Assembly: GCA_963763775.1 (NCBI GenBank)
Contig: CAVXPZ010000003.1
Location: 288,001 to 352,000 of the forward strand
Source: an uncultured Chloroflexia bacterium
Lineage (GTDB): Bacteria > Chloroflexota > Limnocylindria > Limnocylindrales > CSP1-4
Length of the DNA stretch: 64,000 bases
Reading direction: 5' to 3'
Shown: positions 5,631 to 12,933 of the stretch, one piece after another
Layout: each line of letters opens with the position of its first letter
Numbering within the stretch: the stretch's first letter is position 1
Notes under the pieces: generated by a model
What the model was told of the DNA's origin: nothing
Databases searched by the model: none
The model's input: only the letters and a program-made list of their open reading frames with translations
Program-made: the position numbers and the translations under genes

Positions 5631-8600
5631 ATGCGACGCATGGCACTGCCGGATCCGCCCGTTGACACTCGCCGCGAGCGATCCGTATCGTTCGCGCCTC
5701 TCGACGCGCCCGAGCGAATCCATCGTCCAGGCGACCGTCCGTCGATCCCGGTCGGTCCGGGTCGGCCCACGATCGCCGCCGCACAAGCCAGCGGAGCCCA
5801 CCGCGACGACGTGAGCGGCTATCCGATCCAGTACGCGAAGGTCCAGCCTCCGCCATTGCGGGAGGAGACCCTCGCACGCCATCGACTGCTCGACTGGCTT
5901 GCCGCGAAGATCCACCACCGCGTCATCCTGGTACTCGCCGATGCCGGGTACGGCAAGACCACGTTGCTGGCGGACTTCTCGGGACGGACGCGTCTCCGAA
6001 CGCTCTGGTATCGCCTCGACGAGGACGACCGCGACTGGATCTCGCTGCTGAACCACCTCGTCGCGGCCGGTCGCGAGGCGGACCCATCGTTCGCCCCGAC
6101 CACCGCGGCGATGCTGGCCGACACCAGCCTGACCGGTCCGACGATGGATGCGGTCATCGAGGTGTTCATCCGCGAGCTCCAGGGCATCGCGCCCCATGGG
6201 GCGGTGTTGATCTTCGACGATTTCCACCTGGTCGACGACGCGCCGGACGTGCAGCGGATCGCGCGCGAGCTCGTGACGCGGGCGCCGGAGCGGCTGTCGA
6301 TCGTCTTCGCGAGCCGGCGTGCGCCGGGCATCCCGATGGCGCGACTCCGCTCGATCGGCGAGGTCGGGGAGCTGACCACGGACGACCTGCGCTTCGACGC
6401 TGACGAGACCGATCGCCTCTTCCGCGAGTCATACGGCCGAACGCTCGATCCCGATGTCCTCGCCGATGTGACGGCTCGGACCGAGGGCTGGGCCGCGTCG
6501 CTCCAGCTGGTTCACGCGGCCCTTCGCGACCGTACGCCCGGCCAGATCCGCCAGTTCGTGCACAGCCTCACGGGTGCCGACCGCGAGCTCTACGACTACC
6601 TCGCCGAGGAAGTCATCGGCGACCTGCCACCTGACCTCCAGACCTTCCTGATGCGCACCTCGATCCTTCAAGTGGTCACGCCCACCTTTGCTGAAATTGT
6701 CACTGGGGCAGAGGCAGGCTCATGCAGTCGTCTCACCAACTCCGCCGAAAGGCTCACGTTGCTTAGCCGACGGTCCCGTGGACCAAGGAGCGAACTCCGG
6801 TATCACCCCCTTGTTCAGCAGTTCCTCATGTCTCGACTCACGCGAGAGCTTGGGACGGACGGCGTACGCGACCTTCATCGGCTAATGGCGGAATACGCCG
6901 GCAGCCGCGACTGGCGCCTAGCGGCGCACCACCTGTGGTCGGCAGGCGATCAAGTAGATGCTTGGGCGGTCATCGACTTGGCGGCCACCGGAATAGTTGG
7001 TCGAGGGGAATATCTGGTAGCGGCACCGTACCTGGAGGCGGCCACCGAGCGAGTCGAACGCGCCAGCTTCGAAGTAGTGCTGTCGCGTCGAGACTTCAGT
7101 GAGGGCAACATCCGCGGGGCGGTAGCTCATGCCGAACAAGCGGTGCTGCTTGAGCCACGCTCCGACCTGGCGCTTGCCAACTTAGCGTCCCAACACGTAA
7201 ATGCCGGCAACATCGAAGAAGGTGTCGTGTGGGCACGGCGCCTACTTAGCCAGCCGGGGGATCTCGGCATCCAGGGCATTGCTGCGGGAATAATCACAAT
7301 TCATCAGACGTCACTCGACGGCGACGTCACCGCTGCGATCACCGAGTTCTCGAACCTGGCGACGCAACAACACGCGGCGGGTTACATCCACTTCGAGGGC
7401 ATCAGTCAGCTCAACCTTGCTGACGCCTACAGAGCGAGTGGTGATCTCGTGGCATCTCGACGAGCCGCACAGCAGGCTGTCGAGCTCCTTCAGTCAAGTT
7501 CCGCCGGCTCGGAAGTGCAAGTTGCCCAGGCATACGTCGCCTGGGCCGATGCTCACCTCGCTGAGCTCGGAAACGCCCGAGCATCGATCGAGACAGCGTT
7601 GGCAACGGCGAACGACGCAAGTCGCGCGGACGTGCTCTTTGAAGCGAGCGACCTCGAAGCCGCATACGGCAGTCAGAACGCTGCCGCGGACCACCTTGCC
7701 CATCTGCGCGCAACGGGTGCCGGGGCGGTTGCCGGACAGGTCGCGTCCCTTGAAGTGCTCGTTGCGCTGAGGCTGGACAACCAGGAAGAGGCCCTGCGGA
7801 GGTCTGAGTCGCTGGGGAGGGGTGTCCCAAGCAGTCTGATCGCACACCAGGCTCGCGACATGGTTGTTCGTGCGCACGCCATGGCGTCCGCGATGGCAGA
7901 CGGCGCGAGCGATGCGATCGCCCGGGCACACTTTCATGCTGAGTCGCAGACGGCGGGGCTGTGGGCTGAGTACGCAGCTGCCCTTCGAGCCGTTACGGCC
8001 GAGCGCGACGGACTCAATGCCTACGTCAGATCACGTGGCCGGGTCGGCTTGTGGCCGCTGTCGCGTGTCGCAGAGCTGTTGACCAACCGCCTGAACGATC
8101 TCGGGGGAGACGAGGCCGATTCTGTTCGAGCCGAGGTGGTTCTCCGTCCCGACCGGTGGCGGTCGGCGCTCCGCCTCTCGGTCGACCGGCGAATGGGCGA
8201 CGGGTTGAACGCAGCGAGGCTGCTTGACTTGGTAGGTGAACACGAGGACGTCGTACGACTTCGAAATGTCGCTCACAAGCATCGGGGCCGACCAGACGCG
8301 GAGCTCGGCCGAGGATTGGCCCGGCGCCTAGCTCCGATGGTCTTTGTCGAGGACCTCGGCCGCGTCTCCCTGCGCATTGGCGAACGCGCGATAGAGGGTT
8401 CCTCAGTTCGACGCAAAGTGCTGGCGTTGCTCTGCTTCCTGGTCACCCGACCAAGGTTCTCGGCAACGCGTGACGAAGTGATGGACGCACTCTGGCCCGA
8501 CTTCGATCCTGGTGACGCACAGAACTCGTTAAACCAGACGGTGTACTTCCTAAGGCGCGTGTTTGAACCGGACTACAAGGACGATCTGTCGCCTGGATAC

Positions 8601-9074
8601 GTCCACCACGAGTCCGATGTGATCTGGCTGGACGAGGCCCTGGTTTCCTCACGAAGCTCGAGCTGTGTAGCGCTCATTCGATCGATGACGTCCGAACCAA
8701 CGCCTGTCGAGGTCGAGCAGCTGTCGGTTGACTACATCGCGCCATTCGCTCTCGACTTCGCCTACGAGGAATGGGCTGGTGACTACCGCTCGTCGCTGCA
8801 CTCGAGTTACCTGCAGGTCATCGAAAAGGCAGTCACGGTCGATACCGCGAGTGGGCACTTCGATCGAGGGATCAACCTAGCGAGGAGAGCCTTGGACCTG
8901 TCGCCAGATGCGGACCAGGTCGAGTTGTCCCTGCTGCGAATGCTCCAACTGAATGGGTCTCATGCAGCGGCTGCCGAGCAGTACAGCCACTACGCCGCGG
9001 CGCAGCGCGACACCTATGGAATCGAGCCGCCGGCCCTCGAATTCCTTGTGAGGATAGGTAAGGTGCCGTATTGA
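5631..9074 (+). CDS. MalT-like STAND ATPase-TPR-BTAD transcriptional regulator (start could be 5640 or 5811)
   Basis: KVQPP..LARHRLL, ADAGYGKTT Walker A, LIFDDFH Walker B, TEGWAASLQL, RYHPL, helical repeat middle, C-terminal wHTH (LLCFLV..TRDEVMDALWP..SLNQTVYFLRR) plus BTAD. Confidence 0.88.
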   Translation: MRRMALPDPPVDTRRERSVSFAPLDAPERIHRPGDRPSIPVGPGRPTIAAAQASGAHRDDVSGYPIQYAKVQPPPLREETLARHRLLDWLAAKIHHRVILVLADAGYGKTTLLADFSGRTRLRTLWYRLDEDDRDWISLLNHLVAAGREADPSFAPTTAAMLADTSLTGPTMDAVIEVFIRELQGIAPHGAVLIFDDFHLVDDAPDVQRIARELVTRAPERLSIVFASRRAPGIPMARLRSIGEVGELTTDDLRFDADETDRLFRESYGRTLDPDVLADVTARTEGWAASLQLVHAALRDRTPGQIRQFVHSLTGADRELYDYLAEEVIGDLPPDLQTFLMRTSILQVVTPTFAEIVTGAEAGSCSRLTNSAERLTLLSRRSRGPRSELRYHPLVQQFLMSRLTRELGTDGVRDLHRLMAEYAGSRDWRLAAHHLWSAGDQVDAWAVIDLAATGIVGRGEYLVAAPYLEAATERVERASFEVVLSRRDFSEGNIRGAVAHAEQAVLLEPRSDLALANLASQHVNAGNIEEGVVWARRLLSQPGDLGIQGIAAGIITIHQTSLDGDVTAAITEFSNLATQQHAAGYIHFEGISQLNLADAYRASGDLVASRRAAQQAVELLQSSSAGSEVQVAQAYVAWADAHLAELGNARASIETALATANDASRADVLFEASDLEAAYGSQNAAADHLAHLRATGAGAVAGQVASLEVLVALRLDNQEEALRRSESLGRGVPSSLIAHQARDMVVRAHAMASAMADGASDAIARAHFHAESQTAGLWAEYAAALRAVTAERDGLNAYVRSRGRVGLWPLSRVAELLTNRLNDLGGDEADSVRAEVVLRPDRWRSALRLSVDRRMGDGLNAARLLDLVGEHEDVVRLRNVAHKHRGRPDAELGRGLARRLAPMVFVEDLGRVSLRIGERAIEGSSVRRKVLALLCFLVTRPRFSATRDEVMDALWPDFDPGDAQNSLNQTVYFLRRVFEPDYKDDLSPGYVHHESDVIWLDEALVSSRSSSCVALIRSMTSEPTPVEVEQLSVDYIAPFALDFAYEEWAGDYRSSLHSSYLQVIEKAVTVDTASGHFDRGINLARRALDLSPDADQVELSLLRMLQLNGSHAAAAEQYSHYAAAQRDTYGIEPPALEFLVRIGKVPY

Positions 9075-9128
9075 CCGGTTGGGTCCGGCATCCATATAGT
9101 CCGGCCACTTCGTAGTACTCCGGTACTA
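9071..9128 (+). promoter_or_regulatory. Putative sigma70 promoter of the peptide genes with downstream palindromic operator
   Basis: TTGACC 9071-9076, TATAGT 9095-9100 (18 bp spacer), TAGTAC-TCCG-GTACTA 9113-9128. Confidence 0.6.
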
Positions 9129-9274
9129 GGAAGCCGTGTCAAGACGCTCGGACGCGCAGAAGCACCACCTGAAATGGGCACTTGGGGTGGGGCAGAGCGA
9201 GTAGTGCAACCGACCGACTCACAGCCGGTCGGTTTTCGTGTTCCAAACACGAAGGCCGCAAAGGAGGAACGAGC

Positions 9275-9328
9275 GTGACAGCCGAGTCCATCAAGGGCTG
9301 GCTTCCCGAGTCCATCAAGGGCTGGTAG
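9275..9328 (+). CDS. 17-aa peptide MTAESIKGWLPESIKGW
   Basis: AAGGAGG 9261-9267, 7 nt before GTG; TAG stop; in-frame repeat of ESIKGW. Confidence 0.7.
   Translation: MTAESIKGWLPESIKGW
9282..9325 (+). repeat. Perfect 20-bp direct repeat, 24-bp period
   Basis: CCGAGTCCATCAAGGGCTGG at 9282-9301 and 9306-9325. Confidence 0.95.
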
Positions 9329-9340
9329 GGAAACGCAGCC

Positions 9341-9430
9341 GTGAAGGCTAGGATTGTGCGAGTCCTCGTCGCGCTCTCGAGCGTGGCGATGATCGCACTC
9401 GCAGGTGGAGCTTCCCTGAGGGGCTTCTAG
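9341..9430 (+). CDS. 29-aa signal-peptide-like precursor MKARIVRVLVALSSVAMIALAGGASLRGF
   Basis: GTG start, basic n-region, hydrophobic h-region, LAG-G lipobox-like junction, SLRGF tail; weak RBS AGGGAA. Confidence 0.7.
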   Translation: MKARIVRVLVALSSVAMIALAGGASLRGF

Positions 9431-9506
9431 TACGTTGGTCCCATTACCTCGGAGAGCGGCGAGGGGCTACAGTTCCCGGGTAGTGGACCAGCGAATTAGG
9501 CAGTCT

Positions 9507-10910
9507 ATGCCAAAGTCCCTCAAGCTCTACATCGCTGGAGTCGTGGCTCTGGGCGCCGTTGCGCTCGTGGCTACGACTCTTGTGTTTCTGCCGTACCCGG
9601 AGATCGCGCTCGGATACGATCCCACCGCAGGTCAGCCATCCGATGCCAGCGTCTTCTTGGGGATCGTGTTCTGGACAATCCTGGCGCTGGTGGGTTCAGC
9701 CCTCCCTGTCCAACTCCCACGTGGCTCCCAGCACGCCGTGGCCATCGCGCCAATCATGGCTGCGCTGTTTCTAGGGGGGCCAACCGTTGGGGCTTGGGTG
9801 GCGGCAATCGGCACGACAGAGGTCCGAGAGCTCCGCGGCCGCATCCCGTGGTACGGGACCCTGGCAAATCACGCGGGCCTGGTCATTCCGGCCGTCGCCG
9901 GTGGTTTGATTGTCAATGTAACCCGAGGAGTCGCCGAAGGTCCGGTCGCACAATTCAGCGTGGCGATGGTCGCCGCGACTGTATTCCTGCTGCTGAACCT
10001 CCTGCTCGCTTCGGCGCTCCTCGCTCTCCGCACAGATCAACGCATCATCGAGGTCAGTCGCGGAGACCTTCGAGGCATCGCGGGAAGTTGGGTTGCACTC
10101 GCGCCGCTGGCGTGGCTGATGGCCCTGATCTACGGGGTCCAGTGGTGGGCGACCGCGCTGTTCGCCGTTCCGCTGTACTCGACGCGTCTCGCGTACCAGC
10201 GCTTCGTCGAGATGCGCGACATGTTCACGCAGACCATCGGTGCGCTCGCCGAGGCGGTCGACAAACGCGATCCGAACACCGCGCGCCACAGTCATCGCGT
10301 GAAGGAGATGTCGGTCGACATCGGCCGGGTCCTGCGAGTGTCCGACGCGGAGCTGGAGGCCCTGGAATGGGGCGGCCTGCTCCACGACGTCGGCAAGATC
10401 GGCGTCCCGGACAACGTCCTGCTCAAGCAGGACAAGCTCACGCGAGAAGAGCGGATGATCATGAACGCGCACCCGGTCCTGGGTGCCGAGATCATCGCCC
10501 CGGTCACGAAGCTCGCCCCCGAGCTGCCGATCATCCGGCACCACCACGAGTGGTACAACGGCTCGGGCTACCCGGACCGGCTCATCGGCGACGAGATCCC
10601 GAAGCTCGCCAGGGTCCTGCACGTGGCCGACGCCTTCGAGGCCATGACCGCCTCCCGCCCGTACCGACCGACACCGCTGACCAAGGAGCAGGCCCTCGCC
10701 GAGCTGCGCAAGTTCGCGGGTATCCAGTTCGACCCGGTCGTGGTCGACGCGTTCGTCCGAACGCCCTGGGTCGATGGCGTCCCCGATGCGGGCCGCACCC
10801 CGGAGCCCCGGCCGATCCCGCTCATCGCCCAGCACGCCGAGCAACTCACCAAGGCCGTCCGCGCCGACGACGCCACCGTCGTCGCCAACGCCACGGTCGA
10901 GCAGGTCTGA
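9507..10910 (+). CDS. Membrane-sensor HD-GYP phosphodiesterase (start 9483 or 9507)
   Basis: About 7 TM segments, then LLHDVGKIG, HHEWYNGSGYP, VADAFEAMT..RPYR. Confidence 0.92.
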   Translation: MPKSLKLYIAGVVALGAVALVATTLVFLPYPEIALGYDPTAGQPSDASVFLGIVFWTILALVGSALPVQLPRGSQHAVAIAPIMAALFLGGPTVGAWVAAIGTTEVRELRGRIPWYGTLANHAGLVIPAVAGGLIVNVTRGVAEGPVAQFSVAMVAATVFLLLNLLLASALLALRTDQRIIEVSRGDLRGIAGSWVALAPLAWLMALIYGVQWWATALFAVPLYSTRLAYQRFVEMRDMFTQTIGALAEAVDKRDPNTARHSHRVKEMSVDIGRVLRVSDAELEALEWGGLLHDVGKIGVPDNVLLKQDKLTREERMIMNAHPVLGAEIIAPVTKLAPELPIIRHHHEWYNGSGYPDRLIGDEIPKLARVLHVADAFEAMTASRPYRPTPLTKEQALAELRKFAGIQFDPVVVDAFVRTPWVDGVPDAGRTPEPRPIPLIAQHAEQLTKAVRADDATVVANATVEQV

Positions 10911-10988: not shown

Positions 10989-12933
10989 GTGATCCTCGCC
11001 GGCATCGCCATCGGGCTCATCCTCGGGCTCCTGGCCGGTGGCCGCATCACGAACCTCGGCTCCGTCAGCCTCCGCTGGGTCCCGCTGCTGGTCGTCGCCC
11101 TGATCCTCCGGTTCGGGACGGAATTCCTCCTCGCGGACGGCAACGCCATCGCCGATGCGCTTCGCGTGCCGCTCCTCGCGACATCGTTCGCGCTCCTCCT
11201 GGCGGGGATCTGGGCCAACCGCACCTACCCGGGCATGACGCTCGCATTCGTCGGGACGCTGTCGAACGGGCTCGTGATCCTCGTCAACGGCGGCTACATG
11301 CCGATCTGGGAACCGAGCCTGGTGGCGGCCGGCTTCACGACCGCGGACGTCTCGACGACGATCCACACGATCCTGCCGGCCACCCTCGATGCGAGCTTCC
11401 TGCTCCATCTCGGCCCGCTCGCCGATGTCATCCCGATCCCCATACCGCCGATCCAGAACGTGGCCTCGGTCGGCGATGTCTTCCTGATGTTCGGCCTGGC
11501 GTTCTTCCTCTTCGCCAGCGTGGTCCGCGTCCCCGAGGCGGTCTCGGGCAGCGCAGGGACGGGTCTGTCGCCCGCGATGTCCGGGGTCGCGTCACTCGAC
11601 CGGCCGGTGGTGCTGGGCGGCCAGGCCGGACGCCTCGCGTCGCCGTCGCGGATCGCGATCCCCGTCACGCCAACCCGTCGTCGGCGAACGTATCCGACAC
11701 CACCCGTATGTCCGCCTCGCGCTCAACGGCTCGTTCTCGGCGCTGTGGGCCGGGCAGTTCATCTCGATCCTGGGCGACCGCATCAACACGGTCGCGCTGG
11801 CCGCCATCGTCTATGGCACCACGGAGTCGCTCACGGCCGGCGCCTTCGCGTTCGTCGTGGCGACGCTCCCGAACCTCTTCCTCTCGCCGTTCGCGGGAAC
11901 GCTCGTCGACCGCTGGGACCGCAAGGAGGTCCTGGTCGTCAGCGACATCCTGCGGGCAGCCCTCGTGCTGCTCATCCCGCTGGCGGTCATCGTCAATCTG
12001 CTCTTCGCCTACGTCCTGATCTTCCTCGTGACCGCGGTGTCGATCTTCTTCCGGCCGGCGCGGGTGGCGATCCTCCCGCAGCTCGTCGACGACGGCGACC
12101 TCGTCACGGCGAACTCGGCGATGTGGATCGGCGAGACCTCCGCGGACATCATCGGGTACTCCATCGCTGGCCTCCTCGTGTGGGGACTCGGGACGGCGCT
12201 CCCCCTCGCGTTCTGGCTCGATGCCGTGACGTACCTCGCGTCCGCCATCCTGCTGGCGACGCTCATCGTGCGGCCGATCCCACCCGAGGAGGCCGAGCGG
12301 GCGGCCATCGAGCGCGACACGCTCGGGTTCTTCGGACAGATGCGCGAGGGCCTCCGATTCCTCCGCCGCGAGCCGACGCTCCTCGCGAACACGATCCAGG
12401 CGTCGGTGGCGCAGTGCACGGTCGGGGCGCTGCTCGCGCTGATGTACGCCTACGCGCTCCAGGTCTACGCCAGCTCGGCGATCGACTGGAAGGCGGCGTA
12501 CGGCTTCCTCGAGACGAGCGTCGGGGCCGGCAACCTGCTCGGCGGTTTCGTCATCGGGCTCGTCGGCGCGCGACTCGCCAAGGGACGCTCGATCATCGGC
12601 GGGTACGTCGTGTTCGGGGTCTTCACGATCCTGATGGCGCTCTCGAACCAGCTCCCGATCGCCCTCGCGTTCGGGTTCGGCGCCGGGGTCGCGAACATGG
12701 CGTTCGTGATCCCGAGCCAGACCCTGTTCCAGGAGCGGACGCCGGCCGGGCTGATGGGACGGGTGGTCAGCTTCCGATTCGCCCTGGTGTTCGGGGCGAT
12801 GACGGTCGCCGCCGCCATGGCCGCGTTGTTGCTGCTCGTCCTGAGCGCCACGACCGTCCTCGTGATGTTCTCGGTCGTGACGATCGGGGCGGGGCTGGCG
12901 GGATGGCTCGTGCCGGCCCTTCGTGACGCGTGA
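10989..12933 (+). CDS. DUF5317-MFS transporter fusion (frameshift near 11670)
   Basis: N-part: GGRITNL..LRW, SNGLVILVNGGYMP, LADVIP..SVGDVF; C-part: LWAGQFISILGD, GTLVDRWDRK MFS motif A; MFS frame has no start codon between stop 11485 and 11857. Confidence 0.8.

Follow-up and report, generated by a model that had tools for sequence, protein, structure and literature searches.

Riboswitch units for cyclic diguanosine monophosphate (c-di-GMP) of the c-di-GMP-II class (RF01786) are known chiefly from Clostridia and Deinococcus. Here we describe such a unit in a 64,000-nucleotide stretch of DNA (hereafter the window, meaning the whole stretch analysed) from an uncultured Chloroflexota bacterium of the class Limnocylindria, with particular regard to a 29-codon open reading frame (ORF) at positions 9341..9430, termed ORF2. 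As in the known units, a full-length aptamer scoring above its cut-off is followed by an intrinsic terminator, whereas the phylum is a different one and the first cargo consists of two micro-ORFs, ORF1 and ORF2, followed by an enzyme degrading c-di-GMP. The order of the operon is promoter, c-di-GMP-II riboswitch, ORF1, ORF2, a gene for an HD-GYP phosphodiesterase and a gene for a DUF5317-MFS protein, with the gene for a MalT-like regulator preceding it. All coordinates given refer to the window, and the features so placed lie on its + strand.

The pheromone precursors of Firmicutes, such as those of the SHP/Rgg and Phr/Rap systems and the enterococcal inhibitor-peptide precursors, are very short and have a basic N-terminus and a hydrophobic core; their active part is made up of the last 5-8 residues, and one receptor can be contested by two related peptides. 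ORF2 is alike in build, but it is found in another phylum and next to a STAND regulator rather than a receptor of RRNPP type, its processing is putative, and ORF1 lacks any leader. The AgrD/AgrB pair and the exporters of double-glycine peptides also offer a likeness, in that a small peptide gene here lies beside the gene for a polytopic membrane protein some 190 residues long, the junction of ORF2 has an invariant Gly-Gly, and a transporter domain is fused to DUF5317. However, DUF5317 has no likeness in sequence or fold to AgrB, to C39 or to any solved protein, the transporter is of the MFS and not the ABC type, and the hydrophobic 'leader' of ORF2 resembles a membrane span. With MgrB, which acts on PhoQ, and with KdpF the locus shares a single-span protein of fewer than 50 residues that is co-regulated with its presumed membrane-protein target, although there is no homology and the small protein here comes with a soluble peptide that has the same pattern in its C-terminal five residues. 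TnaC and the Erm leaders are likewise short 5'-leader ORFs with their conservation concentrated next to the stop codon; unlike these, the peptide family of ORF2 also occurs outside the leader context, and its hydrophobic build is conserved.

Judged by its sequence, the riboswitch is a member of the known family RF01786, and what appears to be new is a riboswitch-gated pair of micro-peptides whose family has no name; there is a fair chance that it is something more. Literature searches on DUF5317, and on Limnocylindria in conjunction with c-di-GMP, returned nothing. Those parts of the literature that were available to us on c-di-GMP-II riboswitches with HD-GYP proteins hold no description of a peptide-pair unit, and such a unit was equally absent from the available parts of what was found on c-di-GMP riboswitches in Chloroflexi, including PMC2864571.

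ORF2 is conserved as a protein-coding gene

ORF2 starts with GTG, stops with TAG and encodes 29 residues, MKARIVRVLVALSSVAMIALAGGASLRGF, comprising a basic N-terminus, an uncharged span of 19 residues, an invariant A-G-G-A junction and the tail SLRGF. An initial annotation of the sequence had proposed this ORF as a precursor made up of a basic start, a hydrophobic stretch and a short tail. The ORF is real, with frame, start and stop exactly as then given and strongly conserved, and the proposed build was borne out when we pooled 119 distinct leaders from all sources, 106 of which hold an intact ORF2; these and all other counts across relatives come from related loci and are not independent. 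The length is exactly 29 residues in 101 of the 106 intact copies, 102 carry a net N-terminal charge of +2 or +3, and 97 have an uncharged span of 19 residues. Junction and tail follow the consensus A-[LIV]-A-G-G-A-S-L-[RK]-G-F, with G-G-A invariant in the class and the tail as invariant as the junction.

Within the genus, the tail was found in 24 of the 26 loci in which the riboswitch could be placed, the two others having an altered or frameshifted end (L009) or being masked with N (L020), and 18 of the 24 copies retain an intact frame of 29 codons. Frameshifts or interruptions in ORF1 or ORF2 that leave the downstream tail intact occur in L003, L004, L009, L010, L015, L018, L024 and others, mostly in assemblies of few contigs, and look like homopolymer indel error.

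Several properties of the nucleotide sequence bear on whether ORF2 is coding. Over its last 17 codons, the entropy was 0.31 at the first, 0.13 at the second and 1.28 at the third codon position, and pairwise comparison gave 1250 synonymous against 268 non-synonymous codon differences. Codons for Arg and Ser switch between boxes with the residue kept. This period-three excess of synonymous change, the fixed length, the switches of codon box and the linkage to the same neighbours argue together that ORF2 is a protein-coding gene under purifying selection. The opposite explanation, that ORF2 is a chance open frame in a conserved non-coding leader, may draw on the facts that short ORFs are common in G+C-rich DNA and that the leader region holds conserved RNA elements; faced with the same substitution pattern, the near-constant length of 29 codons and the homologues in other families, which are recognisable at the protein level only, we regard it as highly improbable.

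A profile built from 18 intact ORF2 peptides matched in 110 of 401 genomes of the class, a tally that includes one unpublished genome (G150), with matches in 79 of 137 genomes of its own family and in 29 of 153 genomes of a second family, where they were weak. All of 20 divergent loci, three of them from the second family, held an ORF ending in AGGAS[LF][KR]G[FW]-stop. As an independent sample, we used 80 loci from Chloroflexota, mostly Candidatus Limnocylindria, that were picked purely by likeness of the HD-GYP protein. An ORF2 homologue was present in 73 of the 73 loci among these that reach at least 330 nucleotides upstream, nearly always at 65-92 nucleotides ahead of the HD-GYP start.

ORF1 and its matched C-terminal end

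ORF1 (9275..9328) has a GTG start at 9275 and a TAG stop at 9326-9328, and its 17 residues, MTAESIKGWLPESIKGW, include no leader. A Shine-Dalgarno sequence, AGGAGG (9262..9267), lies 7 nucleotides ahead of the GTG, and AAGGAGG is found 6-8 nucleotides ahead of the ORF1 start in nearly all relatives. The upstream peptide ending in SIKGW, to which the tail of ORF2 had at first been compared, is real. In relatives, ORF1 is 10 residues long in 83 copies and 9 residues long in 21, the consensus of the decapeptide being M-x-P-[ED]-x-x-x-K-[GAPS]-[WFY]. ORF1 of the window is longer because its ES-x-KGW unit is tandemly duplicated, and the same duplication was seen in the relatives L003 and L018.

Among 79 distinct ORF1 genes of 10 codons, Pro3 is kept in 68, an acidic residue 4 in 56, Lys8 in all 79 and Gly9 in 64 (the rest having Pro, Ala or Ser), with Trp, Phe or Tyr at position 10 in all 79. 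For the Pro3 codon, the entropy was 1.70 at the third position against 0.27 at the second, and the key positions of ORF1 are, by this pattern, under purifying selection at the level of the protein. The start codon is GTG in 99 of 109 copies, and the stop codon is TAG in 91, TAA in 18 and TGA in none. From the end of ORF1 to the start of ORF2 there are 12 bases in the window, with gaps of 2-16 nucleotides within the genus. A fusion of the two peptides by read-through was considered, ORF1 and ORF2 being in frame in the window, but it was rejected as the corresponding gaps of relatives are not divisible by three.

The tails of the two peptides follow the common pattern [ST]-[LIV]-[KR]-G-[FWY]. 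SLRGF and SIKGW had initially been noted to agree by residue class at every position, an observation that held and was strengthened by covariation over 98 loci in which both peptides could be parsed. Their last five residues are all identical in 11 of the 98 loci, and four of the five in 3 more, with matched pairs including SLKGF/SLKGF, SIKGW/SIKGW, SLKGY/SLKGY and TLKPF/TLKPF. Where the tails are identical, one ORF uses AGC for Ser and the other uses TCN, and these different codon boxes show that the identity lies at the level of the protein and is therefore not the result of copied DNA. When the ORF2s were permuted among the 98 loci, a test that ignores the kinship of the loci, none of 10000 shuffles reached the observed mean tail identity of 1.908 (shuffled mean 1.745, standard deviation 0.033). 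The genome G358 carries two full cassettes of riboswitch, ORF1, ORF2 and HD-GYP gene on two contigs, and their tails are specific to the cassette, being TLKPF/TLKPF in one (L054) and DLKGY/SLKGF in the other (L053). With this covariation and the cassette-specific tails of G358, the C-terminal pentapeptide thus behaves, as far as sequences can tell, as a module read by a co-evolving partner.

The leader RNA and its c-di-GMP-II riboswitch

The peptide genes are directly preceded by a c-di-GMP-II riboswitch and a terminator, a context that the initial annotation did not include. The aptamer (9141..9224) matched RF01786 with 61.4 bits against a gathering cut-off of 53.5, covering positions 1-84 of the 84 of the model, and it is the sole copy in the 3.3-Mb genome. 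Across 61 related genomes RF01786 was found in 28, with 27 of 36 in the same genus and none of 24 in a sister family with small genomes; in a control search it was also matched in Deinococcus radiodurans. In the 20 divergent loci the riboswitch was always found upstream of the ORF2 homologue, 17 times above the cut-off and 3 times just below it, and a riboswitch pattern was matched in 70 of the 73 loci selected by HD-GYP likeness.

A hairpin resembling an intrinsic terminator, followed by a run of T (9212..9244), was located by a terminator scan, and by pattern count GTCGG plus a T-run lies within 50 nucleotides of the aptamer in 114 of the 119 unique leaders. According to the alignment, the 5' arm of this terminator is the 3' strand of the outer helix of the aptamer (model positions 74-84), and ligand binding should therefore prevent termination. 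We infer that the riboswitch is an ON switch, with high c-di-GMP letting transcription through.

Upstream of the aptamer, a putative promoter of sigma-70 type (9071..9100) consists of TTGACC, an 18-nucleotide spacer and TATAGT, with 10 of 12 matches in a consensus scan that found one site where 0.2 were expected. It is part of a block, GATAGGTAAGGTGCCGTATTGACC...TATAGT...TAGTAC-N4-GTACTAG (within 9040-9130), which begins at the stop codon of the MalT-like regulator and is almost invariant among 114 leaders, TATTGAC being present in 110 and GTACTAG in 81 of these. The palindrome TAGTAC-N4-GTACTA (9113..9128) lies between the -10 element and the aptamer, and the block as a whole is likely to be a promoter together with an operator or a 5' hairpin.

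The spacer from ORF2 to the HD-GYP gene (9431..9506) is structured and holds the conserved elements GTAC, CCATTACC (9441-9448) and TACAGT (9468-9473), the last of which reads TAGAGT in relatives, at a fixed distance ahead of the HD-GYP start. Instead of or besides forming a hairpin loop, TAGAGT/TACAGT could be an internal -10 element. The minimum free energy of the spacer segment in the window was -46.6 kcal/mol (z -4.6). Over 98 leaders, with a mean z of -2.16, the minimum free energy structure pairs the last codons and stop of ORF2 with the Shine-Dalgarno region of the HD-GYP gene in 51, a pairing in folding models that suggests translational coupling of the two genes. For 25 spacer sequences, RNAalifold gave no consensus structure.

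This pairing speaks for another explanation, by which ORF1 and ORF2 would be mainly cis-acting leader ORFs, ORF1 with its strong Shine-Dalgarno sequence loading ribosomes, termination on ORF2 opening the hairpin over the ribosome-binding site of the HD-GYP gene, and the sequence [KR]-G-aromatic-stop serving as a pause signal. The short gaps between the two ORFs, the exclusive use of TAG or TAA as ORF1 stop with GTG as the usual start, and a conservation that peaks at the C-termini, a trait of known arrest peptides, would agree with it. The lack of a consensus structure speaks against it, as do homologues ahead of DUF5317 at loci having neither riboswitch nor HD-GYP gene, which keep a basic and hydrophobic build that a leader peptide does not need. 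Moreover, the tails drift (F/W/Y, G/P, K/R, L/I/V) and yet match within a cassette, which fits a co-evolving partner better than it fits the near-invariant ribosome. All in all, we find control in cis quite unlikely as the function of the pair.

Metatranscriptome contigs cover the leader in four libraries from three studies. One of them (X13, record 7) spans 9296-9475, over ORF2, with 1 differing letter in 180; two (X16, record 12, and X17, record 18) bridge aptamer, terminator, ORF1 and ORF2 (9175-9398 and 9154-9398), with 9 differing letters each; and one from a relative (X19, record 27) links ORF1 and ORF2 to the HD-GYP start (9249-9588). These contigs are a hint of transcription of the leader and of read-through past the terminator, and a lack of contigs over other parts counts for nothing either way. 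In all four libraries, the depth of contigs over the aptamer and terminator (9111-9263) was far above that over the ORFs and the HD-GYP gene, with 10668 against 26-285 in X19; the excess is compatible with abundant terminated leader RNA and is confounded by riboswitches of other organisms. Among sequencing runs matching the locus, the word shares were all at most 0.16, and we draw no inference on habitat.

Junction, topology and processing of ORF2

With regards to processing, ORF2 has the positively charged n-region and the hydrophobic h-region of a signal peptide, and at 19 residues its uncharged span is on the long side for an h-region and on the short side for a membrane span. The class junction A-x-A-G-G-A-S includes three sites that obey the -3/-1 small-residue rule, and an S26 peptidase is encoded in the genome of the window. 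More distant homologues have a G-x-G-A-P junction, with Pro straight after the small residues. Since Pro right after small residues makes a poor signal-peptidase-I site at that bond, a cut there in the distant homologues looks doubtful. The initial annotation had also described the junction as a lipobox lacking its Cys; that likeness is a coincidence, as none of the 106 copies has a Cys within 3 residues of the Gly-Gly.

The Gly-Gly itself is present in 106 of 106 copies, as in double-glycine peptides. For the C39 peptidase (PF03412) there were no matches in the genome of the window, which is 87% complete, and control matches were obtained in 7 of 14 genomes. No receptor family of RRNPP type is among the library matches of the locus, where the neighbouring regulator has a MalT domain and generic TPR. 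From the distribution of charge, ORF2 is predicted to have its N-terminus inside and its C-terminus outside, and the protein would be either tethered to the membrane or cut at the invariant A-G-G-A-S junction.

The regulator, HD-GYP and DUF5317-MFS genes

The gene upstream of the operon (5631..9074) encodes a MalT-like STAND regulator of 1147 residues, with a nucleotide-binding domain, a TPR region and a C-terminal winged helix plus BTAD. Residues 70-442 matched the nucleotide-binding domain of MalT (PDB 8bob, E-value 1.5e-33). The match to NCBIfam MalT had an E-value of 8.4e-55 and stayed below the curated cut-off, and weak Pfam matches to AAA_22, TPR_2, Trans_reg_C and BTAD were all under their cut-offs. 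The C-terminal 450 residues of the regulator were found directly upstream, on the same strand, in 66 of the 80 loci selected by HD-GYP likeness, the rest mostly having short flanks. The regulator probably activates the operon, which begins at the stop codon of the regulator gene.

The HD-GYP phosphodiesterase (9507..10910) has 467 residues and matched Pfam HD_5 (E-value 4e-38) and HD (E-value 6.9e-19), with the motifs LLHDVGK and NGSGYP read in its translation. Its N-terminal membrane domain (9507-10241) has six to seven helices and belongs to no Pfam family. A model of these 245 residues had a predicted local distance difference test (pLDDT) value of 90.2 and, when searched with Foldseek, 16 of the first 20 rows were S-components, the ligand-binding subunits of energy-coupling factor (ECF) transporters, namely RibU, BioY, ThiT and FolT, with probabilities of 0.92-1.00 and target TM-scores of 0.46-0.68; the better rows held nothing else.

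The last gene of the unit (10989..12933) encodes DUF5317 (about 10989-11549) followed by an MFS transporter of efflux type, with matches to Pfam DUF5317, MFS_1 and MFS_3. The DUF5317 match (PF17248) had an E-value of 5.5e-25 and 88.6 bits against a cut-off of 25, and all 30 aligned relatives match the same family. DUF5317 follows the HD-GYP gene in 76 of the 80 loci. In the window, the two halves are in different frames, switching at about 11673-11734 as determined with tblastn, owing either to an assembly indel error or to a real lesion. An MFS N-terminal motif was found in the same open frame as DUF5317 in 47 relatives' loci, and DUF5317, MFS_3 and MFS_1 were matched in one frame in four of four relatives tested with Pfam; DUF5317 of Limnocylindria forms the N-terminal domain of a fusion with MFS.

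The model of DUF5317 (pLDDT 91.5) has five membrane helices and a four-stranded sheet, and the aligned family shows two invariant Asp residues (D146, and D163 within S-x-G-D) and an N-G-G-x-M-P motif. An assignment of DUF5317 as an aspartyl protease of GXGD or prepilin type (Peptidase_A24, FlaK, presenilin) was considered and had no support from Pfam or PDB profiles, the sole such row in Foldseek being SPPL2a with an E-value of 7.7; nor did the DUF5317 searches support [KR]-G-[FW] as a prepilin-peptidase site. Co-folding of the HD-GYP N-terminal domain, DUF5317 and ORF2 gave complex scores of 0.65, 0.68 and 0.68, with 0.01 and 0.00 for an unrelated 29-residue partner and 0.77 when chain 1 was replaced. 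Because of this last control the score is not specific to the HD-GYP domain, and it speaks neither for nor against binding.

A wider family of small peptides beside DUF5317

DUF5317 was matched in 116 of 401 Chloroflexota genomes, a tally that includes one unpublished genome (G635), and also in Thermus and Thermotoga controls. We studied a distant set of 20 DUF5317 loci and a further set of 40. Two loci of the distant set (L153 and L154) have one or more small ORFs, then an HD-GYP gene with the same N-terminal domain, and then DUF5317, with a c-di-GMP-II-GAG riboswitch (RF03169, 40.9 bits) upstream in L153. The latter locus, when re-oriented, has two tandem identical ORF2-like genes of 31 codons at about 1800-2090, each with its own AGGAGG. 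In six others (L151, L152, L155, L156, L157 and L163) there is no HD-GYP gene, and a MalT-like regulator of about 1070 residues is followed by a small ORF and at once by DUF5317; the small ORF encodes 30-48 residues with basic and hydrophobic parts and a G-x-G-A-P junction. A direct repeat, TTTTGAAGCCTG, occurs twice in four of these (L151, L152, L156 and L157), behind the gene for the MalT-like regulator and about 130-150 nucleotides before the small ORF, and looks like a binding site for that regulator.

In the 40 further loci, a basic and hydrophobic ORF with an [AG]-x-G-A junction was found upstream on the strand of the gene in 16, against 2 on the opposite strand. From the stop of the small ORF to the start of DUF5317, the distance varied between an overlap of 6 nucleotides and a gap of 126. 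The part of the peptides that is shared over the phylum is the hydrophobic span with the small-residue junction, and not the tail. By these sequence comparisons, ORF2 is a member of an unnamed, phylum-wide family with DUF5317 as its constant neighbour, a pair to which riboswitch, ORF1 and HD-GYP gene have been added. Among eight such peptides Pfam gave no significant match, two hits (E-values 0.14 and 0.18) being under the cut-offs, and the nearest Atlas clusters were sets of 'hypothetical protein' with 44-47 residues and 74-102 members.

The initial annotation had tied ORF2 to the gene directly downstream, as the source of a signal for the HD-GYP sensor. Linkage to the downstream genes was upheld by the presence of ORF2 in all of the sufficiently long HD-GYP loci and by the constancy of DUF5317 behind them. 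As small peptides also precede DUF5317 where there is no HD-GYP gene, however, the HD-GYP protein is therefore not the sole partner and perhaps not the primary one.

Candidate functions of the peptide pair

We favour, tentatively and at slightly less than an even chance, a function of the ORF1 and ORF2 peptides as ligands, be they tethered or released, of the membrane proteins that the operon itself encodes, whereby feedback would be exerted on c-di-GMP. This is favoured because a soluble decapeptide and a membrane peptide carry the same co-evolving end and because the unit encodes an exporter-type transporter as well as a sensor-like domain. High c-di-GMP would hold the strand that otherwise forms the terminator and thus turn the unit on, whereupon ORF1 and ORF2 would be made together with the c-di-GMP-degrading enzyme and the DUF5317-MFS transporter. 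In both peptides, the C-terminal pentapeptide would be the functional part, recognised by a single partner that they share and that is encoded in the same unit. The DUF5317-MFS protein would bind, process or export the peptides, and the membrane domain of the HD-GYP enzyme resembling ECF S-components would sense them, such that the level of peptide tunes the breakdown of c-di-GMP and closes the feedback. The release of 6-8 residues by signal peptidase as a signal for the HD-GYP sensor, as initially proposed, would be a special case of this ligand function, which the S-component-like fold of the HD-GYP membrane domain and the fusion of DUF5317 to an efflux-type transporter in relatives favour circumstantially.

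A number of points weigh against such ligands. ORF1 has no export signal, and with ORF1 in the cytoplasm and the tail of ORF2 outside, the two would not share a site unless ORF1 were exported or ORF2 re-imported. Translation, membrane insertion, cleavage, export and binding of ORF2 are all presumed. Six of the 24 same-genus copies of ORF2 have a frameshift or internal stop, probably from indel errors of long reads, which are suspected because the broken frames are mostly found in assemblies of few contigs. The significance of the tail covariation is overstated because the permutation takes no account of the relatedness between loci. The metatranscriptome gives only a hint of transcription because it was seen as contigs, where carry-over of DNA is possible, and without a silent control stretch. 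The likeness of the HD-GYP membrane domain to ECF S-components is weak, the best match (RibU, 5kc0) having an E-value of 2e-3, at target TM-scores of 0.61-0.68, with none at or below 0.001 and no match in sequence. DUF5317 has no detectable relative of known function, since Foldseek gave nothing at an E-value at or below 0.001, a PDB profile search gave one match at chance level only, and Pfam found DUF5317 alone in its relatives. Finally, in 24 of the 40 further DUF5317 loci no candidate peptide passed the filter.

A more specific form of the ligand function, a novel type of peptide signalling gated by c-di-GMP, would make DUF5317 a hitherto unrecognised maturation domain and the fused MFS protein an exporter, cutting the 29-residue precursor at Gly-Gly-Ala-Ser and exporting its tail together with the decapeptide, with the HD-GYP membrane domain as receptor and with cassette-specific 'pherotypes'. 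In this detail the scheme is unlikely. If it is true, the HD-GYP enzyme would be the first c-di-GMP phosphodiesterase to sense a peptide, the timing of signal production would fall jointly to the riboswitch and the MalT-like regulator, and peptide plus DUF5317 would form an ancient core over Chloroflexota and, in view of the Thermus and Thermotoga matches, possibly beyond.

Two further explanations were weighed. ORF2 may, without any signalling, be an uncleaved structural or regulatory micro-subunit of DUF5317 or of the DUF5317-MFS protein, like the very small subunits that some transporters and oxidases have; A-G-G-A would then serve the packing of helices, and ORF1 would be unrelated in function. 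That the peptide genes abut DUF5317 in loci lacking an HD-GYP gene is an arrangement typical of stoichiometric partners, that the constant part over the phylum is the span and the junction but not the tail points in the same direction, and an uncharged span of 19 residues ending in a basic and an aromatic residue would fit a membrane anchor. This would explain neither the common, covarying last five residues of ORF2 and a soluble decapeptide that has no hydrophobic span, nor a constancy of the tail in the class that equals that of the junction; we consider a mere micro-subunit to be a possible, if rather unlikely, function. The second would have ORF2 act like a type I toxin, as a small hydrophobic peptide that perturbs the membrane at high c-di-GMP. 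In its 29 residues, basic N-terminus and hydrophobic span, ORF2 resembles small membrane toxins, but its synteny with specific membrane proteins is strict across several families, and its tail covaries with ORF1. An antisense RNA was not noticed either, though no search was made for one, and a toxin-like activity appears improbable.

With a peptide pair as the first cargo of a riboswitch, having co-evolving ends, this unit would add a micro-protein family left unnamed by gene callers and Pfam, provide a first functional handle on DUF5317 and tie the turnover of c-di-GMP to peptide ligands in a large uncultured lineage of soil and freshwater. Since the system is small enough to be rebuilt in a laboratory host, the control of membrane HD-GYP enzymes with uncharacterised sensor domains should be directly testable.

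Additional DUF5317 loci

A second, stand-alone copy of DUF5317 is encoded in the same genome outside the window (C3:857971-858387, L164), for which the filter used gave no upstream peptide gene. Another link between DUF5317 and c-di-GMP was seen at a locus of a different genome (L165; G107:C7:301500-307400), where a c-di-GMP-I-GGC riboswitch (RF03167, 61.6 bits), at 808-884 on the - strand of that locus, adjoins two DUF5317 paralogues that flank an ORF of 898 residues.

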